Assembly: GCA_030587475.2 (NCBI GenBank)
Contig: JAUQYZ020000123.1
Span: 1 to 13,598, forward strand
Direction of reading: 5' to 3'
Origin: Candidatus Sigynarchaeum calidifontis
GTDB taxonomy: Archaea; Asgardarchaeota; Lokiarchaeia; Sigyniarchaeales; Sigyniarchaeaceae
Length of the DNA stretch: 13,598 bases
The translations under genes were made by a program, and so were the position numbers. How positions within the stretch are numbered: position 1 is the first letter of the stretch; each line of letters opens with the position of its first letter. This document shows, piece after piece, positions 2,371 to 13,598 of the stretch. The notes under the pieces were generated by a model. It was not told where the DNA came from. It searched no databases and saw nothing but the letters and a program-made list of their open reading frames with translations.

Positions 2371-3921
2371 CTACGCGTTCTTGCGTTTCTGTTCCAAAGG
2401 CAAAACGAACGTGAACTTGCTGCCCTTGTACCGGCCTTCAGATTCGACCCAGATTCGCCCGCCGTGCCGCTCAATTATCTCCTTGGTGATGAACAAACCG
2501 AGACCGGTTCCTTGAATGTCCAAGTCCAACTTCACCCCTTCGCGATTGATCTTGCCGAAGCGGGTGAACAGCTTCTCCTTCTCCTCGTTCGTGATGCCCA
2601 CGCCGTTGTCGATAACAGATGTCGTGATTTCCTTGGAAAGATCGTCCTTGGAAACATGCACCTCGATTCGACCCCCTGGTTGCGTGTTCTTTATGGCATT
2701 GGTGATCAAGTTCGTGAGCACTTGCTCGATGCGCGCCGTGTCGAAAGGAAAAACGAGCGATGGGGGCGCCGTGATTACGAGGTTCTGGTTTCGGGATTCC
2801 AACAAGTATTCCTGTTCTTTTACAACTCTATTGAGGACCATGACGAAATCATCATCTTTAGAAACGAGCTCGATCTTGCCGGTCTGGATCTGTGATATAT
2901 CGAGCAATGAATTCACGAGAGATTTGAGCCGGGTCGCGCCTCGATTGATCATCTCGACGAACTTGAGTTCATCGCTACCGAGTGACGCCTTGTAATTCGT
3001 AAGCAAGAATTCTACCGCGCCACACATGGAAACGAGTGGTGTCTTGAGCTCGTGAGATGTCACGGCAATGAAATTGTTCTTTAGCTCGTCGATTTCCTTT
3101 AGCTTGGCAATTTCATCCTCCAAAATCTTTTCAGCCTGCTTTTGCTTGGTTATATCATCCAAGATCACGCCGGCGCGATCATTAAGCATGAAGAATACCT
3201 GAATCTTATAGGCTTTTTCTATGGCACCATTCTCCTTTACGTGGAGATTTTCGAAGGTGAACGGCTTTCCGCTCTGGCTTCCCTCCACGACTTGCCTCAT
3301 GATATTCTTCTCGTCCTCGTGTTTCCAGAAATCCATCAACGGGATACCTTGAAGCTGAGCGAGGCTTTTTCCAGCTAGCTTTTCCGCAGCGGGATTACAA
3401 TCGAGAACCGTGAGCTTGCCTCCTCTCTTGATTTTACAAATGAAAATGGCCGAAGGAATGGCCCGCAATATCTCTATCGATGATTTCGATGAATCCCAAA
3501 GCTTTTCCAGGCTTTCCCAGTATAGCGACTCCGCCGGTAGTGCTTGATTGCTCACGTCGATGATGAACGCGGGCCAATATCCAGGAATCCCATCGACGTG
3601 CAAATAAAACGCCTTGATTTTCACGATCCGGCGATCCATCGCCTCTATCTCGAGCTTGGCCTCCCTCGCTTCACCGCTTTGGCTTTCCTGGCAAACCGAT
3701 TCCACGAAGCCATTGATATTCTTTTTGGAGGGCAGCGCGCTGGTAAGCAGCGCTCCCACATTCTTCCCTAAAAGGTTTTCCTCCCCGAGTATTTTACCCG
3801 CGACAGCATTGGCGTATTGGATGGTACCAGAATAGTCGGTCACGACGAAGCCCAGGTCCAGAGCTAAAAAAGCTCGTTCCCATACCTGGCTGCTGGATTT
3901 TGAATCCTTGAAAATCTCCAT
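2371..3921 (-). CDS. Cytoplasmic PAS-PAS sensor histidine kinase (HisKA + HATPase_c)
   Basis: H box SHELKTPL, N box QVLTNLITNAIK, G1 DNGVGI, F box LFTRF, G2 GTGLGLFI. Two PAS-like starts (GFVVTDYSGTIQYANAVA; AIFICK...VLDCNPAAEKL) and a PAC end DITKQKQAE. No TM helix seen. Confidence 0.93.
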   Translation of the reverse strand: MEIFKDSKSSSQVWERAFLALDLGFVVTDYSGTIQYANAVAGKILGEENLLGKNVGALLTSALPSKKNINGFVESVCQESQSGEAREAKLEIEAMDRRIVKIKAFYLHVDGIPGYWPAFIIDVSNQALPAESLYWESLEKLWDSSKSSIEILRAIPSAIFICKIKRGGKLTVLDCNPAAEKLAGKSLAQLQGIPLMDFWKHEDEKNIMRQVVEGSQSGKPFTFENLHVKENGAIEKAYKIQVFFMLNDRAGVILDDITKQKQAEKILEDEIAKLKEIDELKNNFIAVTSHELKTPLVSMCGAVEFLLTNYKASLGSDELKFVEMINRGATRLKSLVNSLLDISQIQTGKIELVSKDDDFVMVLNRVVKEQEYLLESRNQNLVITAPPSLVFPFDTARIEQVLTNLITNAIKNTQPGGRIEVHVSKDDLSKEITTSVIDNGVGITNEEKEKLFTRFGKINREGVKLDLDIQGTGLGLFITKEIIERHGGRIWVESEGRYKGSKFTFVLPLEQKRKNA

Positions 3922-4021: not shown

Positions 4022-5827
4022 ATGATGCGAAAAAAGCGCCGATTCGGGCTGCAAGTATGCATCGCGTGCTTGTTGGTGTTCTTGATGCATCTTGGACCGG
4101 GTATTTTCTTTCATACATCTTTCGTCGATTTACACGGGAACGATCGGCAAGGTATCGGAACTATAGCGATCGTTCCATCCGATGGCACGCATAATTTTAC
4201 CGTGGTCGATATCCGCAACCACCATTTTTCGCTGGCGGAGCGTTACTTACTTGCATCCATCGATGGACTCGTGAACAAGAATGGTTCGAACTTGTTCATC
4301 ATAGAAAGTTTTATCGACGAGTTTTGGTTCAATTACATCAACGGCAGCGGACTGTATTCTGGCCAGCTCCTTCCATTCACAAGCGTGCTCGATTTGGTCG
4401 ATCATTTCAAGGAATATTTCGAGGGCATCATCATCTTCGACAAGAACGATCCGGACCAGGCGAACATGGCCACGCCGCTATGCGGTGCAAACAAGTCGCT
4501 GCTCGTCGACCACGATATTTACAACGCGGTCAAGGCCGTGTTCGATGCGCCAGTGACCTACAACATGACCAAGATCGTCTCGGATAATGCCCTGACTACC
4601 CGCACGGCAAAATATGCATATGCCTTCGACAATTTCTATCCAATTTCGAATCAGTCGGCGCTCGCGTATTTCGCGGAGGATGCCCCACACCACGCCCGTA
4701 GTTTCTACATCGCCAACAACATCTTCACGTTATGGCGCGTGCTATACGTGCACTCGGCCCCTGACGCGGGGGACAAGGATCCAGATCCCCAAGACCAGCT
4801 CGATCTCGTCGCGCGCATCCTGGACGAGACGCCCATCAATATCCCGGTGTATGGCTATCCGTGGCCAGACGGTAGCAACGAGGGCGCTGCGGTGACCCAG
4901 ATCTCCCGCCGCGGAAAGTATGTAATCGCCAACGATTGGGCATTCAACTTGCCATTCCTTGCGAACATGCGACTTCCCCAGGACTACAGGTTTTCACAAC
5001 CGCGGTGTGATTGCATTTTTTTTCCAGAAAACAAGATCTACGTCGCCGGTCTCTGGTCGGACGGGGACAACATCCAATACGTGTTCAACTTCATGAAGTT
5101 CACGCTCTGGGACAATCGCATGGCCGGTCACGTGCCGACCGGCTGGACGATCTCGCCGTCGTGTTACGATCTGATGCCGTGGGTGATGAAATGGTTCTAC
5201 GAGAACAGCACGCCTTACGATTATTTCGTCGCTGCCCTGTCCGGGAAAGGGTACATGTACCCGCGAGAAATGACCGATGCCATGCTCCAAGCGTACTACG
5301 CCGACGTGCGTCCCTTGCTCGATCTCACGGATTTGCACGAGTTGCACACGATGAACATCGGGGACAAGGCCGGGACGGTCGCCGGCCTCCTCGGCAACAA
5401 GGTAAACGTCATCTTCGACGGCTACGGGGGTAATCGCTACGAGTTTCCCGAGTTACACCACGGCACGCCCGTCCTCCATTCACTCTACCTCACACTCCAG
5501 CCGAACAACACGGAGGAGCAGTTCCGCAACGTGGTCAATTTAAAGACCGTCGCGGCCACCCAGCCCGTTTTCGTGTTTTTCAACATCCACTGCTGGAGCG
5601 GGAGCAGCGATCCGCTGTTCTGGAACAAGTTCGCCGCCCGATTGCAAGCTGCCGGGGTGGAAGTTGTCCGGCCAGACGTGCTCGCCCAGCTCGCGAGGCG
5701 GGCGAATATCGGGGCGGCGTTCAACGTGGTTCCGGCCAACGTGATGCTCGCGTTGACCTTAAGCACGACCGTTGTAGCCCTCGCCATCGAGATCCTCCGC
5801 GTTCGCAAGGATCGATCAGTGCTATAG
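4022..5827 (+). CDS. GxGYxYP-family putative glycoside hydrolase, secreted and C-terminally membrane-anchored
   Basis: Signature SGKGYMYP, plus SDGDNIQY and PTGWTISP typical of the family's C-terminal domain, and ASIDGLVNK in the N-terminal domain. Basic-hydrophobic N-terminus (RKKRRFGLQVCIACLLVFLM) and a C-terminal TM with basic tail (VMLALTLSTTVVALAIEILRVRK). Confidence 0.85.
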   Translation: MMRKKRRFGLQVCIACLLVFLMHLGPGIFFHTSFVDLHGNDRQGIGTIAIVPSDGTHNFTVVDIRNHHFSLAERYLLASIDGLVNKNGSNLFIIESFIDEFWFNYINGSGLYSGQLLPFTSVLDLVDHFKEYFEGIIIFDKNDPDQANMATPLCGANKSLLVDHDIYNAVKAVFDAPVTYNMTKIVSDNALTTRTAKYAYAFDNFYPISNQSALAYFAEDAPHHARSFYIANNIFTLWRVLYVHSAPDAGDKDPDPQDQLDLVARILDETPINIPVYGYPWPDGSNEGAAVTQISRRGKYVIANDWAFNLPFLANMRLPQDYRFSQPRCDCIFFPENKIYVAGLWSDGDNIQYVFNFMKFTLWDNRMAGHVPTGWTISPSCYDLMPWVMKWFYENSTPYDYFVAALSGKGYMYPREMTDAMLQAYYADVRPLLDLTDLHELHTMNIGDKAGTVAGLLGNKVNVIFDGYGGNRYEFPELHHGTPVLHSLYLTLQPNNTEEQFRNVVNLKTVAATQPVFVFFNIHCWSGSSDPLFWNKFAARLQAAGVEVVRPDVLAQLARRANIGAAFNVVPANVMLALTLSTTVVALAIEILRVRKDRSVL

Positions 5828-5878: not shown

Positions 5879-8677
5879 TCAAGGATGCCCTTGATCTTTC
5901 TCGGCGGGCATTTTTTCGTGCTTTTTTTCGGTCTTGTTGATGGTGAACCCGAGCGTGAGGATCTCTTGTTGCCTAGCAAAAAAAGAGACCGAGTTTTCCT
6001 TCTCGATAACGAGCTTGGACACGTGGCGTTCGAGCAAATCGAGCAGCCACGCTTCCTTCAGCGGATATGCAATTGAAATCGATCCCGTCAAAGGTGTGGT
6101 GGATGTGGATAGCACCCGGATGACGATCTCCTCGGGATTTTCCTCGGAGCGCTTGATCGCAGTAATGACGAGTTGTTCTGGCTCGACCGTGATGAAACCG
6201 GCCGCGCGGGGAAGGGCTTCGCCTTTTATATCCCGTCCAGGCGATTGCACCGCGACGAGCGGCACGTTGAACCCGAGGGCTTCTGTCGGGATGCGAGCCT
6301 GGATCGGGTCGCCGTCATGGAAGATCAGCGAGTACCGGAACTCGTGGCTGCCTATCTCGAAGGCTTCTGGAATGCTGTAGAACGGGCCTAGCAGCAGCGG
6401 CACATTACCTGCTGCAAGGGTGCCGACGTAACCGGTGCTGCGTAGCAGCGTTAGGAACATCATCGTCTTGTCCTCGCTTATCTCTTGTTCCGGCAAGCCG
6501 ATGTTCATTATCGTCATTCCCTTGCATTCCTCCGCGCTGGAAACATCAATCCAGTTGATAGCCGGGAAGATCCGGTCGTAATGCGCGAAGCGCTTGTTCT
6601 TATAGCTCCAGGCATTTCCTTTCTGCGGGGTCGGATCCCGCTCGATATGCCCGAACGGGATCTCCGTGCGAAACACGGGCTGCTTAACGGGCACGGGAAA
6701 GCAAGCCTGGATTCGCACGTTGCGCGCACGGTTCTCTATACGCGTGATGAAATCGATCCGGGGCGGGCCATGGTGGTTCAATATCACGTACTGGGTCACG
6801 TCATTGACCGGTTTGAAAAAGAGCTTGTTCTTGCACTGCAGCTTCGACGAGATGCGAATGACCACGCGAACCGGACCATCCTCCACCACAACGAGTTTAT
6901 TCCCGAACGTCGTAAATACTTTCTTTGGCATCGTGCCTTCGAGGTAACTGTCTCCACGGTCGTTGAAGATGCGCAGCTCGTTAATGGCTTGTCGCTTCCC
7001 GTCGGCGAGCAAGGCCCCCGCCTTGTCCTTGATCGATCTTAATTTTCCAGCTTCGAAAACGAGCGTGAAATGCAATCCATTGACCTCGACCGTTTCACCT
7101 TTCACGGAGACGCTGTTTCCCGCTAGGCCATTAGCCGGCCTGGCCTTCTGGTCGATGTTCGCGGCCCGCGTGATCGTGTAGGTCGCATATCCTGCGGGGG
7201 GAACAGCGTTGCAAGCCATCACGTGCACGTGCTCGTCTGTCGAAATGCAATCTTTCTGGAACGGCAGCTGCTTACCTGTCTCATCGAGAATCGAGTCCAA
7301 TCTTGCATCGCCCAATAACTTGAAGGTTACGATCCCGTCCCTCGTCGCGGCGATCGCGTTGAAAACGAAGATCGATTCCTTACCATTCAAGGGCCCAAGG
7401 GTCGTTATCGAGTTTGCAAGGGTGTCCAGCGCGGATGTATAGATCTTGTTGAGCTGCATCGTGGATAACTTGAGTTGTTTCATGACGTGCACGAATGCGG
7501 CATCAACGCAGCAGCCCGGAAGGGCATCGTGGAAGCAGCAGCGGAGCAAGCGCCAGGTGGCCTTCTTGATTTCTCGTGCAGGGTAAGGAAAACCAGACCG
7601 TGTCGACGCGATTGTCGACGTGACCTCGGCTAGATACAAGGCGTTTTCGCAAGCCCGGACGGCCTGCTTCACGCGGACGCGCGTGCTGAACGTGCCCGTG
7701 AACTTGTCCATGAAGCCAGACATCTCGCACGGGCCAATGCTGGTCAGCTGGCGGCCACTCTCCCGGATCGCCTGGAAAAAGTCACGGGGAAGGGCGACGT
7801 GGACGCGGAGCTGCTTGTGCTTGTGGTTCAAGTATTCCACCGCGTCGAGCACGTTGGAACTCGGTGGCAAGTTGTCCGTCCCGCACAGGATGAAGACGTT
7901 CGGCGTTGCTGCTTGCGCGGCACGTCGCTTGATCGTGAAGGTGAGGCCGCCGATGTCGCTGCCGATCAGCGCGGCCCCGGCGTTGATGCACGCGATCCGC
8001 TGGAACAAGTATTTGATCGGTGGTAGCACGCTCTTCAAGATTTCGTGCACCTTGAAGGCTTGCGGGATAAGCGCGATAGTGAACGGGATGGGGGCGAACG
8101 GGTAGACCGGGGCGAGGATGGTGCCCGTGTATGGCGGGAGAACGAAGGCATAGTTGATGCGCATCCAGTGCGTGAGTACACTCGTGCCGTCCAGCGCCAT
8201 CCAGTAAAATTCTTGTGGGATATTCCTGCGGATGGCCCCTCGCACGAAGATAAACTGCTCCAGGCCGGCCTTCGCGAGGAGCTGGGGAAACTGCGCAGTT
8301 ATACCGAAGGAATCGATCAAGAATCCCGTCTTCGGCTCGACGCCGAACTGTTCCTTGAAATAACGCATGCCGTGCAAGAACTGGCGGGCAAGGGTCTCCC
8401 CCCTTGCCAGGAGCGTGTCCGGGGCGACGACCATGCCCCCCATGAGCTCGATTCGGTTCTCGGCGACCCGCTGCACGAGTTCAGCCATCATGTCCGGGTA
8501 GTGGAGCTTGAAGTACTCGACCGCCATGGCCGAGTCAATGATATATTTATAGCCGGGATACTTGCGCATGAGGAGGAGGGCTTCCTTGATGAGCTTGGCG
8601 TTCTTTGCGCCCATGGCGTCGGGTGGATCGCACCAGAGATAGTCGTAGTGGCTATGTGGGGTCAAAAAAACGTCCAA
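5879..8677 (-). CDS. GH38 alpha-mannosidase (start uncertain)
   Basis: N-terminal PHSHYD (Zn-binding HxD), GFLIDSFG (nucleophile Asp), EFYWMALDGTSV, GTDN, FHDALPG (Zn His), middle and C-terminal beta domains (EIPFGHIER, LTLLRS, ITAIKRSE). The only in-frame start is TTG 8677. No signal peptide. Confidence 0.92.
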   Translation of the reverse strand: MDVFLTPHSHYDYLWCDPPDAMGAKNAKLIKEALLLMRKYPGYKYIIDSAMAVEYFKLHYPDMMAELVQRVAENRIELMGGMVVAPDTLLARGETLARQFLHGMRYFKEQFGVEPKTGFLIDSFGITAQFPQLLAKAGLEQFIFVRGAIRRNIPQEFYWMALDGTSVLTHWMRINYAFVLPPYTGTILAPVYPFAPIPFTIALIPQAFKVHEILKSVLPPIKYLFQRIACINAGAALIGSDIGGLTFTIKRRAAQAATPNVFILCGTDNLPPSSNVLDAVEYLNHKHKQLRVHVALPRDFFQAIRESGRQLTSIGPCEMSGFMDKFTGTFSTRVRVKQAVRACENALYLAEVTSTIASTRSGFPYPAREIKKATWRLLRCCFHDALPGCCVDAAFVHVMKQLKLSTMQLNKIYTSALDTLANSITTLGPLNGKESIFVFNAIAATRDGIVTFKLLGDARLDSILDETGKQLPFQKDCISTDEHVHVMACNAVPPAGYATYTITRAANIDQKARPANGLAGNSVSVKGETVEVNGLHFTLVFEAGKLRSIKDKAGALLADGKRQAINELRIFNDRGDSYLEGTMPKKVFTTFGNKLVVVEDGPVRVVIRISSKLQCKNKLFFKPVNDVTQYVILNHHGPPRIDFITRIENRARNVRIQACFPVPVKQPVFRTEIPFGHIERDPTPQKGNAWSYKNKRFAHYDRIFPAINWIDVSSAEECKGMTIMNIGLPEQEISEDKTMMFLTLLRSTGYVGTLAAGNVPLLLGPFYSIPEAFEIGSHEFRYSLIFHDGDPIQARIPTEALGFNVPLVAVQSPGRDIKGEALPRAAGFITVEPEQLVITAIKRSEENPEEIVIRVLSTSTTPLTGSISIAYPLKEAWLLDLLERHVSKLVIEKENSVSFFARQQEILTLGFTINKTEKKHEKMPAEKDQGHP

Positions 8678-8710: not shown

Positions 8711-9085
8711 TTAATCGTAGTAGAGTAACAAGGCGAACCACCCGAACCCTGCCAGTATCGCATCCAAGATCCCGAAAGTGGTAAATAATCCTTCTTGAAC
8801 AGCTGTGGTGATGTCCACGGCAAGCATAATCGAATACCCGAACGCCGTGTAGAAGATGACGATGTGGAACAAGATGCCCGCCCAGCCTGCATCGTCTTTA
8901 CGCAGGAATTCTGAACCCGCCGCGATTCCGAGAATGGGAAACACCAGAAGGATCATATCGGAAGCAAGGGCGTTTAGCGACGATGGCCACTCGGCGACCC
9001 GCGGCGGGAATCGTGCCACGAGCACGGCGCTGATGCCGAAGATGACAACACCCAGGATCGTCTCGATTCTTCTATCAATCCTCAT
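8711..9085 (-). CDS. Small integral membrane protein (about 4 TM), function unknown
   Basis: 124 aa from ATG 9085 (MRIDRRIETILGVVIFG...) with four hydrophobic segments. The longer ORF-track start (9424) overlaps the opposite-strand gene and is rejected; ATG 9154 is an alternative. Confidence 0.65.
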   Translation of the reverse strand: MRIDRRIETILGVVIFGISAVLVARFPPRVAEWPSSLNALASDMILLVFPILGIAAGSEFLRKDDAGWAGILFHIVIFYTAFGYSIMLAVDITTAVQEGLFTTFGILDAILAGFGWFALLLYYD

Positions 9086-9233: not shown

Positions 9234-9761
9234 ATGAAGATCAGCTCGATAAAAATCGTGATACGAAGCGATAATAAAGCGGCCATCTCTGAATTTATCC
9301 GGCGAATACCGGGACGGGTATACACAGATGAAACAACTGCACAGATAATCGGCGCTGACTTCACGCTCTCGGAACGCGAAGCCGGCGACGGAGCGATACA
9401 TCTATACATCTGGATCGTTAACAACCACCCGTCTTTCTCGCCGTTGCGCCAGCATTACTTGCAAGGTGCAAAAATACATGCCATGTTCATAGATGCAAGC
9501 AACCCCGAAAGCATCCAGCAAGTTGCCGAATGGAAGGCCGAAGCTGGCGAGGTTATGGAGGAGGCAACAGGCATGATCGTTGCCACTAACATCAACAAGG
9601 TTCCGGACAACGTGAAGGTGGAAGAGAAAATCGGCGAGCTGGCTCTGCATCTCGGTCTCGAGGCAGTGCTCGTCTCGACCGAGACAGAGGCGGACTACGC
9701 GGCTGCCATCAAGACGTTTCTGGAACGGGTTGACCGAATTGCAATGGCTTCTTGCACTTGA
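9234..9761 (+). CDS. Rab/Ras-fold small GTPase-like protein with degenerate G motifs (pseudo-GTPase)
   Basis: 175 aa, aligns in register with the GTPase domain at 12105-12610: KIVIRSDNKAAISEFIRR vs KIIVIGDPSVGKTSLILR; IIGADF; WIVNNHPSFSPLRQHYLQGA vs WDIAGQAKFNTFRKGFYNGA; IDASNPESIQQVAEW vs FDLTNLETFKNVKAW; LALHLGLEAVLVST vs LAKELGCDVLLTSA. Confidence 0.78.
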   Translation: MKISSIKIVIRSDNKAAISEFIRRIPGRVYTDETTAQIIGADFTLSEREAGDGAIHLYIWIVNNHPSFSPLRQHYLQGAKIHAMFIDASNPESIQQVAEWKAEAGEVMEEATGMIVATNINKVPDNVKVEEKIGELALHLGLEAVLVSTETEADYAAAIKTFLERVDRIAMASCT

Positions 9762-9904
9762 TGCATGACTCTTTCCTCTCATCCTTCACGGCGCGCACTT
9801 GATGCAGCTGTCGTCGCGCATCCTGGGCACACGTAAGCTGCTTGCTTGATATCCTTCTGGCAAATTGGACAGACAAGAAATGTTGGCTTCGTTGGCCAGG
9901 GCAT
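9709..9904 (-). pseudogene. Frameshifted 8-Cys (RING/FYVE-like) zinc-finger gene, or an intact 41-aa CPxC..CPxC zinc-ribbon ORF (9779-9904)
   Basis: ATG 9904, preceded by SD-like GGAGGGTGA, gives MPWPTKPTFLVCPICQKDIKQAAYVCPGCATT. The next frame gives SCIKCA and the third gives AVKDERKESCIKCKKPLQF. That is four CxxC pairs in order across two frameshifts. Confidence 0.55.
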
Positions 9905-9965: not shown

Positions 9966-11171
9966 TCACGCGGTAAAACGATACGCGAGGCGCTTGAGTG
10001 CCTCCAGCAGCACGACGCTGGCAAGTCCCAAGGCAATCATCAACGCGGTTGTTATTGCCGCTCCCAAAGGTTCGATTATGGAGAGGTTCCAGAACATAGA
10101 TCCAAAGATATTGAAGGCCAGGATCATTACAATGAAGTGTCGATGGGTATGCAAGACGAGGCCAACGGCGTCGAGGGCAAGTAGCGTGATGGAGCACGAA
10201 AACCAACCGACAAGGGGCAGGCCCGCCGCGAGGAGCAAGAACTGCGCGGGATCGGCGACGCGGCACGCGATGATCGCGGTGCTCGCGGCCAGGATGGCCA
10301 AGAAAAGGGCTCCGGAGACCGCTTGCTTGGCAGCTAGCAACCGTCGGGTGAACCGCGGGAGCGCCAGGAAGCAAGGGGCAATGCCATCCCCCGCGCCAGA
10401 CACGGCCGACGAGATGAAGAACGGCAAGAAGCCCGTGAGGATGTATAGCCAGAAAAACGCGAAGACCGGGTCAGACACCTGGACGGAGAAGCCCGCGAGG
10501 ATGATGGCGGCCGTGGCAACGACCGGTGCAAGCAACGTGGCGAGATTCCTCGCGTCCTTGAACAAGACCTCCATGAGAGACCGCCCGATGTTCCAGGCCG
10601 GCGAGCTGGGCCAGATGCGTATCATCGTTTCCTGAACGTCCCGGCCCGGCGCTTTGGGATTGAGCTTGATCACGGCAAGCGCGAGAACTTGCGACAAGCC
10701 CGCGGGCAACGCGGCTACCAGGATGCTAGATACGACGGCCAGGATACAATATGCTGCGCCAGGCTGGGTGATAGACAGTGCGATCGCCGCCAGCACGGGG
10801 AACGTGGCCGATGGAATGGCGGTTGCCATGGTGATCGCCCCACCGATCGAACGCTCCACCGTACGCGTGGGAAGCGGCATCGACGAGAGAAACGATCGGA
10901 TGCACGGCTTGCGCGCCTGGCCGGCAGCCGAGATGGCCAGGAGGGTCAAGAACGCGGCTTGGATGCCAAGAAACGCGACAAAGTTGTTCCCGAGCGCGAG
11001 GACCAGCGCCCCCGCCGTCGCGGTCACGCACGCGAGTGCGATGGACGCGGTATTCCCTCCTGGGCTGCCTGGTTTTCCGTGCGTGCCCTCCTTGAACCGC
11101 GATTCGGCGAGCACGGCCCTGGCAAGCTGCCACGTCACGTGATCCGGCCGAACCGTTCCATTCACGATCAT
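9966..11171 (-). CDS. ABC-2-type exporter membrane subunit (multi-pass permease)
   Basis: 401 aa, very hydrophobic with about 10 TM segments in two halves. Starts 6 bp after the ABC ATPase stop. Confidence 0.72.
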   Translation of the reverse strand: MIVNGTVRPDHVTWQLARAVLAESRFKEGTHGKPGSPGGNTASIALACVTATAGALVLALGNNFVAFLGIQAAFLTLLAISAAGQARKPCIRSFLSSMPLPTRTVERSIGGAITMATAIPSATFPVLAAIALSITQPGAAYCILAVVSSILVAALPAGLSQVLALAVIKLNPKAPGRDVQETMIRIWPSSPAWNIGRSLMEVLFKDARNLATLLAPVVATAAIILAGFSVQVSDPVFAFFWLYILTGFLPFFISSAVSGAGDGIAPCFLALPRFTRRLLAAKQAVSGALFLAILAASTAIIACRVADPAQFLLLAAGLPLVGWFSCSITLLALDAVGLVLHTHRHFIVMILAFNIFGSMFWNLSIIEPLGAAITTALMIALGLASVVLLEALKRLAYRFTA

Positions 11172-11177
11172 CCGCGA

Positions 11178-11987
11178 TCACCCGCCTCTGCCTGGTAGAA
11201 TGCCTTGTAGTGCCTTGAACTTATTGTGGGCATCGATGACACTCTTTTCGTCCCCGGTCAAGCTCAAGAACAGGCCCTCCAATTCCATCCCCTCGGCGTG
11301 GGCTCGATTGCGTAGTTGATCTACCGAGCCCTCCGCCACGAGCTTTCCCTTGTTGATGACACCGATCCGATTGCAGATGGACTCTGCCTCGTCGATCACG
11401 TGTGTAGAGAGCACGACAGCGTGGCCGCTGCCCGCCATGGTCCCGAGCATGTCCTTCACGAGGTGTCGCGTGCGGACGTCCAGCCCGGTTAGCGGCTCGT
11501 CGAGGACGAGGACTGCCGGATCGTGGAGCAGCGCGGCGACGATCTGGATCTTCTGTTGATTCCCCTTGCTCAACATCGCGATCGGGGTCTTGTAATACTT
11601 CACGGCATCGAGTACCTTGAGCAGATCGCGTGCCCGGCGCGTCGCGATAGTGGAGTCTAGCCGCCTCACGGACGCGACGAGCGAGAGCAGCCGGGCCGGG
11701 GTCATCGACCGGAAGACGTCGGGCTCCTCGGGCACGTAACCCACGATGGCCTTGACCCGCGCCGGGTCCTTCGCTGGATCGTGACCGTTCACGTTGATCG
11801 TACCCTCATCCGGCTTGAGAAGGCCCGCGATGCACTTGAGCAGCGTGGACTTGCCCGCGCCATTCGGGCCGAGCAAGCCGTAGATCTCGCCCGGGCGGGC
11901 CTCGATGCTCACGCCGTCGATTGCCGGGACGAGCCCATACCGCTTGACGAGGTCCTTGACGATGATACCGGTCGGGGTCGCTGCCAT
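11178..11987 (-). CDS. ABC transporter ATP-binding protein (ABC-2 / multidrug-type exporter)
   Basis: Walker A GPNGAGKST, GYVPE loop, signature LSKGNQQK, Walker B VLVLDEPLTGLD, H-loop LSTH, C-terminal LEGLFLSLT. Confidence 0.95.
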   Translation of the reverse strand: MAATPTGIIVKDLVKRYGLVPAIDGVSIEARPGEIYGLLGPNGAGKSTLLKCIAGLLKPDEGTINVNGHDPAKDPARVKAIVGYVPEEPDVFRSMTPARLLSLVASVRRLDSTIATRRARDLLKVLDAVKYYKTPIAMLSKGNQQKIQIVAALLHDPAVLVLDEPLTGLDVRTRHLVKDMLGTMAGSGHAVVLSTHVIDEAESICNRIGVINKGKLVAEGSVDQLRNRAHAEGMELEGLFLSLTGDEKSVIDAHNKFKALQGILPGRGG

Positions 11988-12104: not shown

Positions 12105-13136
12105 TCACGCGAGGGACTTGAATATCTTCGCGGCGAGGTCGGTGAATGCCTGGTCCACGTGCTCGCCCGTGAGCGCTGACGTGAGAAGCACGTCGCAGCC
12201 CAGTTCCTTGGCGAGGGCCTGGATGTCGTCGTCAGGAACAACCCGCTTGTCCTTGAGATCAAGCTTGTTCCCGAGGATGTAACAAGGCATCTTGCCGATG
12301 GCAGAGATGGCATCGTTGTACCATGCCTTGACGTTCTTGAAGGTTTCCAGGTTCGTGAGGTCGAAGGCCACGATGATGCCACGAGCACCATTATAGAAGC
12401 CCTTCCTGAACGTGTTGAACTTGGCCTGTCCTGCTATGTCCCACAAGACCAGCTTGGCCTTTTTCTTGCTCGCGAAAGTAACCTCCTTCTCGGTCAAGTT
12501 CGTGCCGATCGTGGGGAGATATGTCTGGCGAAAGGCATGATCGGTGTACCGGAGGATGAGCGAGGTCTTCCCGACGCTCGGATCGCCGATGACGATGATC
12601 TTGAAGGCGTACTCGGCATCCCTCGACTTGCCAGTGACTTGTGACTCGTCGGGGAACGCGACATCGCCCCGTTGGCCGAGCTCTTGCGAGCGCAGCTCCT
12701 CGATCCGGCGGGTCATGGCGCCGTGGAAGGCAGCGAGGAGCGCGGGTTCCACGGGCTGCTTGCTCTCCTCCCGCTGGGCGATCCTTTTCGCGTATTCGTC
12801 GAAAATCGGCTGGAAATCGGGGAGATACTTGTAAATCACAGCGTCGCCCTCCTCGCCGATGACGAGGGAGAGCGTGGATTCGCCTTGATGGCCACGAGAC
12901 GCGTGATCCCGGTACTTGATGCAGCGGACGACGATCTTCGCCGAGCCGTCGGGCACCGGGATGATGGCGACCTTTTCCGGCACCTCGTCTGCGCCGAACG
13001 AGATGTTCATGGACGCGATGGCCGCCTTTTCAAGGAGCTCCTTTGGCGACGCCAGCGGGTGCCAGCACGCGGGAACGGGGCCGGCACGCTGGTCAAACTT
13101 CGAATACAAGACGGAGATGAGGACGGTCGAGCTCAT
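12105..13136 (-). CDS. Rab-like small GTPase fused to an N-terminal uDENN/longin-like domain
   Basis: C-terminal domain has G1 GDPSVGKT (12564-12587), G2 YLPTIG, G3 WDIAGQ, FYNGA, G4 GNKLD and G5 TSAL. The N-terminal ~150 aa begin VLYSKFDQRAGPVPACWHP, the F-D/H-x3-G-P-x6-P start typical of uDENN/NPRL2-like longin domains. Start placed at ATG 13136 (343 aa). No C-terminal prenylation Cys. Confidence 0.9.
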   Translation of the reverse strand: MSSTVLISVLYSKFDQRAGPVPACWHPLASPKELLEKAAIASMNISFGADEVPEKVAIIPVPDGSAKIVVRCIKYRDHASRGHQGESTLSLVIGEEGDAVIYKYLPDFQPIFDEYAKRIAQREESKQPVEPALLAAFHGAMTRRIEELRSQELGQRGDVAFPDESQVTGKSRDAEYAFKIIVIGDPSVGKTSLILRYTDHAFRQTYLPTIGTNLTEKEVTFASKKKAKLVLWDIAGQAKFNTFRKGFYNGARGIIVAFDLTNLETFKNVKAWYNDAISAIGKMPCYILGNKLDLKDKRVVPDDDIQALAKELGCDVLLTSALTGEHVDQAFTDLAAKIFKSLA

Positions 13137-13274
13137 AGGGGGTACCGCTGGCGGGCTGTTATCTAATGCAAGCTCGTCGTGGAAGGTAATGAATTTTCGC
13201 AACGTCGCTCGTGGCGAACGACCCCATGTGAAGTTTTTAGGCGTGCGTTATCCAGAGCTCTGTAGGATTACCGA

Positions 13275-13292
13275 TCGGGGATTGGTCCCCGA
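13275..13292. promoter_or_regulatory. Perfect 7-bp hairpin / inverted repeat in the divergent intergenic region
   Basis: TCGGGGA-ttgg-TCCCCGA, 17 nt before ATG 13310. Confidence 0.3.
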
Positions 13293-13309
13293 CGAGGCCC
13301 ATCGAGAAA

Positions 13310-13598
13310 ATGTCCCGAACCAACTGTCCCGTCTGCGGGAGACAGCCGAACCCTCCAAAAAGCGAGCTGGAACGGCACTGGTACACGTGCATGGCTTGCG
13401 AACGCGTGTTTTGCACTAATTGCGGGTCTCCAGGGTTCTGTTCCAGGTGTTCAAGCCAGCTCGACGCCAGCCAGCGCCAGCACGTGCGCACGCGCGGCTA
13501 CCGCGCCTTCCACTTGAACAAGGCGAGGACACCGCTCGTGGTCGTCGGGATCGTCGTCTTGATGTTCGGATTGCTCCTCTTTCTCGTTTATTGGAAGA
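13310..13598 (+). CDS. 8-Cys FYVE-like double zinc-finger protein with a TM helix (3'-truncated by the window edge; absent from the ORF track)
   Basis: Hand translation from ATG 13310: MSRTNCPVCGRQPNPPKSELERHWYTCMACERVFCTNCGSPGFCSRCSSQLDASQRQHVRTRGYRAFHLNKARTPLVVVGIVVLMFGLLLFLVYWK, open to the end. Pattern C-x2-C-x17-C-x2-C-x4-C-x2-C-x5-C-x2-C followed by a 20-aa hydrophobic helix. Confidence 0.8.
   Translation, partial: MSRTNCPVCGRQPNPPKSELERHWYTCMACERVFCTNCGSPGFCSRCSSQLDASQRQHVRTRGYRAFHLNKARTPLVVVGIVVLMFGLLLFLVYWK

Follow-up and report, generated by a model that had tools for sequence, protein, structure and literature searches.

The stretch of DNA analysed here (the window, 13,598 nucleotides of Candidatus Sigynarchaeum calidifontis, contig JAUQYZ020000123.1) contains a small gene for a Rab-like protein with degenerate GTPase motifs, called the pseudo-Rab in the following. 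The genes of the window are:

68-1414: DDE transposase
1583-2326: CxxCxxCC protein
2371-3921: PAS histidine kinase
4022-5827: GxGYxYP protein
5879-8677: GH38 alpha-mannosidase
8711-9085, minus strand: divergent membrane protein of 124 aa without a Pfam match, found at the same position only in orthologous locus L002
9234-9761, plus strand: Rab-like pseudoGTPase candidate of 175 aa, a single G domain without hypervariable tail
9709-9904, minus strand: remnant of an 8-Cys zinc-finger gene of about 62 aa, convergent to the pseudo-Rab and overlapping its last 53 nt
9966-11171, minus strand: ABC permease-like gene
11178-11987, minus strand: ABC ATPase
12105-13136, minus strand: longin-like/Rab fusion (longin-Rab), intact and canonical in every G motif, 343 aa, omega 0.06

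That the N-terminal domain of the fusion is longin-like is no more than a lead from the atlas, with NPR2 assigned to 19% of a single cluster. Two conspecific assemblies (L082 and L083) match the window with 99.9% identity until position 13202 and then no longer; the end of the window (13203-13598), with a Cys-rich ORF at 13310, may represent strain variation or a mis-join. Beyond the end of the match L082 encodes an LRR-like protein, and an actin-like protein (ALP_N, MreB-like_C; L082 14624-15670) follows about 3 kb beyond the longin-Rab. An actin gene (L025 1866-2936) is also located 7 kb from P0006, an intact relative of the pseudo-Rab.

An earlier note, made from the sequence alone, had described the pseudo-Rab frame as intact and full length. 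This holds: the ORF comprises 175 aa from an ATG, all orthologues share the start Met, and three further assemblies encode the identical protein (nucleotide identity 99.9-100%). The gene is therefore no assembly artefact, and an assembly error or a frameshift as its source is excluded by these copies. The protein ends with ASCT directly after helix 5, and the prenylated CC/CxC tail of eukaryotic Rabs is not present; archaeal Rab-like proteins are described as lacking a prenylation motif (PMC4915359). The single Cys of the protein was considered as a prenylation site and rejected, since it is not conserved (absent in orthologue P0002) and lies inside the antisense overlap. The JGI label 'SRP receptor beta' of orthologue P0004 was likewise discarded, as there is no SRPRB match.

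The proposed Ras/Rab fold was borne out by sequence and by structure prediction. The protein matches the Pfam Ras family (PF00071) with an E-value of 3.5e-7 and 30.4 bits against a cut-off of 21.6, and its closest solved relatives by sequence are Rab23 and Thor-Rab (E about 3e-7 to 8e-7). AlphaFold2, run on a 16-sequence alignment, delivered a complete G domain (pLDDT 87, pTM 0.84) with the six strands and five helices that define the Ras superfamily. With only the four orthologues as input the same fold elements were obtained at a pLDDT of 72, with an ill-defined switch I. Foldseek retrieved Rab1/3/8 at a TM of about 0.75, and in VIA-align the best folds were Rab11/Ypt32 (Z 19.8; for Ypt32 an rmsd of 2.7 over 169 residues) and Rab23 (Z 19.6).

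The positions of the GTPase motifs and of the switch surface were read by alignment to intact relatives, all on the plus strand:

9267-9290, plus strand: former G1/P-loop S12-D-N-K-A-A17-I18-S19 (SDNKAAIS), both Gly and the Lys gone, Ser19 kept
9345-9362, plus strand: G2 position I38 (Thr in 2/4 orthologues) and RabF1-like IGADF with Phe43 of the hydrophobic triad
9411-9428, plus strand: interswitch Trp60 (triad), then former G3 I61-V-N-N64-H65, Asp and Gly gone
9435-9470, plus strand: switch II face F68-L71-R72-Y75-G78-A79 kept, with triad Tyr75 (Leu in P0002)
9585-9596, plus strand: former G4 T118-N119-I-N121 (TNIN; subfamily TKxD), K>N and D>N
9675-9683, plus strand: former G5 S148-T-E150 (STE; subfamily SAK)

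The earlier note had counted G1 to G4 as lost and G5 as altered, which needs to be refined for several residues. In G1 the loss of both Gly and of the Lys stands, but S19 is an allowed residue ([S/T]) and is kept. The replacement of the G2 Thr by Ile is real in the window, but orthologues P0003 and P0004 still have the Thr and the loss is thus not family-wide. In G3 and G4 the exchanges of Asp and Gly and of Lys and Asp were confirmed, while H65 and T118, also listed as deviations, are the normal state in the intact parent subfamily (DLAGH, TKxD). The G5 change from SA to ST was read correctly (STE at 148-150). From canonical G1, G3, G4 and G5, only S19, T118 and S148 survive, and the motif set of an active GTPase is not present. 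The host is a Loki-type Asgard archaeon, and the same-genus genome G002 encodes a protein identical to one of 'Promethearchaeota archaeon Zod_Metabat.1055'. In the host genome (5.0 Mb, 89% complete), the pseudo-Rab is the sole one among about 41 Rab-like domains in which G1, G3 and G4 are all destroyed. Two further, more distant GTPase-like ORFs with degenerate motifs were seen in this genome, one at C106:26898-27434 on the plus strand (GSRNAGIS / YEIAST / GSHLD) and one at C43:303-899 on the minus strand (GSRYTGKG / WVLSYD / GVRLN).

The Rab-type surface, on the other hand, is present as claimed, with IGADF, W60, F68-x2-L-R-x2-Y75-x2-G-A and D87-x-S-N-x-E-S...W100. RabF motifs are found in IGADF, HLYIW and YLQGA together with F43/W60/Y75; RabF3 and RabF5 match weakly. 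RabF motifs and the surface they form serve the binding of regulators and effectors (PMC4915359), and the spacing of F43-W60-Y75 equals that of F48-W65-Y80 in Rab11, where these residues form the effector-binding triad (PMC6138693). The claim of a selective loss of the G motifs was supported as well: when 13 intact subfamily members define the columns that are conserved to at least 90%, the four orthologues retain the residue at 2 of 11 G-motif positions versus 18 of 24 other positions (Fisher p=0.003). Measured against 100 canonical Rab-like proteins, the same contrast is 1/10 versus 7/13 (p=0.07). Some or many of the retained residues are structural, and folding alone could explain their retention.

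Three further orthologues of the pseudo-Rab, with 72-80% identity, were detected, and metagenome scans revealed no more. Dead G1, G3, G4 and G5 motifs are common to all four; by computation, the residues for phosphate, Mg-switch and guanine binding were hence lost prior to the split of these lineages. In the phylogenetic analysis (a FastTree overview and a maximum likelihood tree of 31 rows) the orthologues form a 100/100 clade on a long stem, inside a 97/98 clade which also holds P0114 and P0006 with intact G motifs (GxxxxGKS, DxxG, TKxD). A second eroded clade (G002/P0115/P0116) belongs to the same group; here the P-loop Lys and G3 persist, and the losses concern other residues. In its members (L031 7135-7692; L081 225-761; P0115) the P-loop ends in AKA or VKV, G4 reads ANAD or ASGG, G5 is lost and G2 and G3 are kept; their neighbours are a longin-like gene of 306 aa and a Rag/Arf GTPase. 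By the AU test, the two clades with the strongest erosion may or may not go back to one origin (p-AU 0.36).

The whole group is part of a 100/99 clade of fast-evolving copies which includes tandem pairs, double-Rab fusions and the eroded P0008 and P0018. Tandem double-Rab proteins or arrays were observed at L024 295-1410, L080 840-2000, L026 2149-3960 (here the second Rab domain is split over two ORFs) and L025 9296-10546; P0018 and L025 9296-9883 constitute another eroded pair, with a GTS P-loop and no G3 Gly. The subfamily signature is GADF...HLYxW...F..LRxYY.HG. An intact group with the same switch signature occurs in all four genomes of the family (in the host genome, G000, at C145:15730-16221), and the switch face of the pseudo-Rab resembles this C145 paralogue, which is a paralogue other than the adjacent longin-Rab. 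The placement of the C145 group as sister is not firmly established. In a class-wide search of 161 genomes, many of them incomplete, with 22 candidates scored in each, subfamily-level matches were obtained only in the host genome and in the same-genus genome G002. Since intact, half-eroded and eroded members stand in one tree, the subfamily has evolved by repeated duplication and stepwise loss, with the pseudo-Rab as its extreme.

The frame is under purifying but relaxed, moderate selection after the motif loss. Counting by NG86 gave a dN/dS of 0.36-0.41 among the orthologues. A codon model on codons 1-158 gave a maximum likelihood omega of 0.385 (range 0.33-0.46; p=4e-7 against 1). Codons 159-175 had been removed for the antisense overlap; this overlap was rejected as the cause of the low omega, which is unchanged without these codons. 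Omega is alike on all five branches (0.34-0.44), although the window's own branch (0.44) is not by itself significantly below 1 (p=0.065); all these tests rely on four closely related orthologues. The earlier note had named a missing Ras-like fold, intact motifs in all close homologues and a dN/dS near 1 as results that would speak against its reading; instead, the fold is predicted, the losses are shared and omega is below 1.

Could the gene still be a redundant duplicate in slow decay, held by weak selection for foldability and heading to loss? Such a fate keeps some weight since most of the neighbouring genes are constrained 2-6 times more strongly (mostly omega 0.10-0.21; permease 0.26). 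It would also agree with the repeated erosion of the subfamily, which struck other residues each time, with the unstable gene neighbourhood, with the lower GC3 of the pseudo-Rab (0.61 versus 0.77-0.81) and with the fact that the gene was not found in G001 and G003 (63% and 78% complete). Nevertheless, we consider it unlikely. No stop codon is present in the orthologues where about 9.6 would be expected under neutrality (P about 7e-5), no indel breaks the frame, and the five branches evolve alike. Moreover, of the classes of sites that were compared, the former G positions show the strongest constraint, with an omega of about 0.09 at 13 positions versus 0.42 elsewhere (likelihood ratio test p=0.007, permutation p=0.008; 4 sequences). 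In the switch region omega is 0.25 versus 0.44 elsewhere (p=0.07).

The adjoining zinc-finger gene shows how true decay looks at these loci. Two single-base deletions are found in the window and a 42-nt deletion in L002, and in L001 the ATG is missing from its usual position, whereas the gene is intact in L003; it is also broken in the three conspecific assemblies, where it is called as 41 aa. As it decays at the same loci, it provides an internal control for the intact pseudo-Rab frame. The same zinc finger occurs at about a dozen other sites of the host genome, mostly within long frames. By its fold and its degenerate motifs the pseudo-Rab is a candidate class i pseudoGTPase, and the moderate constraint marks it as a gene that is probably maintained rather than a pseudogene.

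The zinc finger is present at all four orthologous loci and is the sole constant neighbour of the pseudo-Rab, next to three different upstream neighbours. In G002 the order longin-Rab, ABC ATPase and permease is kept, followed by the gene which stands upstream of the pseudo-Rab in L003, and there is no pseudo-Rab between the permease and this next gene. The position of the pseudo-Rab beside the longin-Rab thus looks recent, and the simplest reading would be an insertion of pseudo-Rab and zinc finger beside the permease. The host genome has no Rab gene at the site (C185) that corresponds to the position of the subfamily member in G002, GCA_040960625 and GCA_041305925. What it encodes there (L068 3340-4299) is a fragment resembling a transposase, by eye of the IS110 type, and a membrane protein of 266 aa.

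These observations bear on the proposal that the pseudo-Rab and the active longin-Rab about 2.3 kb away (we find 2.34 kb) are partners, a dedicated pair of one dead and one active GTPase. The short distance, the permease end of the same operon that is also adjacent in L003, and the tandem and double-Rab arrangements of the subfamily, which make a pairing of G domains conceivable, would fit such a pair. The two genes are, however, on opposite strands with two genes between them, the longin-Rab operon of G002 does without a pseudo-Rab, and orthologue L001 has different flanks without the permease. Subfamily members in G002, GCA_040960625 and GCA_041305925 adjoin the 306-aa longin-like gene and the Rag/Arf GTPase instead. 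The longin-Rab stands far from the pseudo-Rab in the tree, has a different switch face (IGTNL / FNTFRKGFY) and is one of about ten similar fusions in the host genome. Gene order is furthermore a poor guide here, as it rarely pairs GTPases of Lokiarchaeia, or Asgard Rab-like proteins in general, with their regulators (Tran et al., PMC10933270). We therefore regard the pair as improbable, and this part of the earlier note is not upheld. A complex prediction for both proteins, with a score of 0.23 where the mark is 0.32, speaks neither for nor against the pair.

The comparison with known Asgard Rab-like proteins (Thor-Rab, PDB 7EZB/7EZD/7EZE; PMC10933270, PMC4915359; PF00071) reveals the same fold and length, RabF1/F2/F4-like motifs, the F-W-Y triad and the absence of a prenylated tail, and the intact subfamily from Lokiarchaeia is the ancestor of the pseudo-Rab. 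It differs from them in the replaced G1 Gly/Gly/Lys, G3 Asp/Gly, G4 Lys/Asp and G5 Ala/Lys. As the P-loop Lys and Gly, the G3 Asp and Gly and the G4 Lys and Asp are all missing, the protein is predicted to be nucleotide-free, unable to bind or hydrolyse GTP.

Known class i pseudoGTPases are the psGD of AAGAB and Irc6p (PMC12490416), and CENP-M, the dynein light intermediate chain and the pG domains of p190RhoGAP are further pseudoGTPases (PMC5593906). As in these proteins, the GTPase fold of the pseudo-Rab persists without the G motifs and presumably serves as a protein-interaction module. The pseudo-Rab differs in being archaeal, stand-alone and young; it is restricted to a single small clade, and relatives in intact and half-eroded states survive. 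The fold of AAGAB can be matched to it at Z 14.1 (rmsd 3.3 over 157 residues), less well than that of true Rabs (Z 19.8), and the pseudo-Rab keeps a switch face which AAGAB does not use. It nests with the intact P0114 and P0006 (97/98, in a tree that did not include the eukaryotic proteins) rather than as an orthologue of AAGAB, CENP-M or the dynein light intermediate chain, none of which appeared near the top of the sequence searches. By these comparisons, its origin is independent of the eukaryotic class i pseudoGTPases. The range of pseudoGTPases is stated to extend from prokaryotes to humans (PMC12490416); in the literature outside subscription papers we found nothing relevant on Asgard or archaeal ones.

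A different use of the altered pocket was also considered, in which the replacements bind another small ligand or a non-guanine base and the protein acts as an atypical sensor and not as an empty scaffold. The near-fixed replacements (S12, A17, I18, S19, N64, T118, N119, N121, S148, T149, E150) have an omega of 0.06-0.09, and the D>N exchange in G4 is known from Ypt1 to switch specificity from guanine to xanthine (PMC2120555). In language-model features, the atlas clusters that come closest are those of IFT22/RabL5, an atypical Rab-like protein (0.95, a lead only); no sequence search placed the pseudo-Rab near IFT22. IFT22 itself has a P-loop and is able to bind nucleotide. Phosphate binding is unlikely without the P-loop Lys and both Gly, however, the signal comes from 13 codons in 4 sequences only, and loop packing can account for the constraint, so that a repurposed pocket seems a rather remote prospect.

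The explanation we favour, and hold to be fairly probable, is that the pseudo-Rab is a young nucleotide-free pseudoGTPase which acts as a constitutive binder of, or decoy for, the partners of its own subfamily. It would have arisen by duplication within a Rab-like subfamily of the Promethearchaeota. To judge from the loss of the motifs alone, it would bind no guanine nucleotide and could not switch, while the replacement residues may stabilise the empty pocket. The retained face of switch I, interswitch and switch II would then bind, constitutively, those proteins which recognise the intact C145 paralogue, and the protein could be a permanent adaptor, or else a sink that takes up a regulator, for example an exchange factor of the longin/roadblock type. 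The choice of this interface may be wrong, since AAGAB, whose class i status is proven, does not use its switches for binding but a different surface (PMC12490416).

A precedent for such a sink is offered by the nucleotide-free Ypt1 mutants N121I and D124N, which sequester the exchange factor (PMC2120555). They share with the pseudo-Rab a broken G4, including the same D>N exchange (N121 of the pseudo-Rab is the equivalent of D124N), and an intact regulator-binding face; they are engineered point mutants and have an intact P-loop, whereas the pseudo-Rab occurs naturally and is affected in all of its motifs. A natural dominant-negative Rab, fixed by selection and titrating an exchange factor or effector of its intact sister GTPase, is a possible but still doubtful special case.

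Overall, the sequence evidence suggests that the pseudo-Rab is a real, young, narrowly distributed and probably functional gene under moderate constraint, a 'dead' molecular switch that was probably reused as a binding module, whose partner is probably not the adjacent active Rab. Exchange factors are classically trapped with a stable Rab that is free of nucleotide and has an intact switch face, so the pseudo-Rab could serve as a direct bait. With intact, partly and fully eroded members in one subfamily, the birth of a pseudoGTPase could be followed biochemically. If the dominant-negative reading is true, these proteins would provide both a living series of pseudoGTPase origin and a bait for the regulators of Asgard Rabs. 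Dead GTPases that were put to new use are known chiefly from complexes of eukaryotes; the pseudo-Rab suggests that the closest archaeal relatives of eukaryotes reuse them, too.
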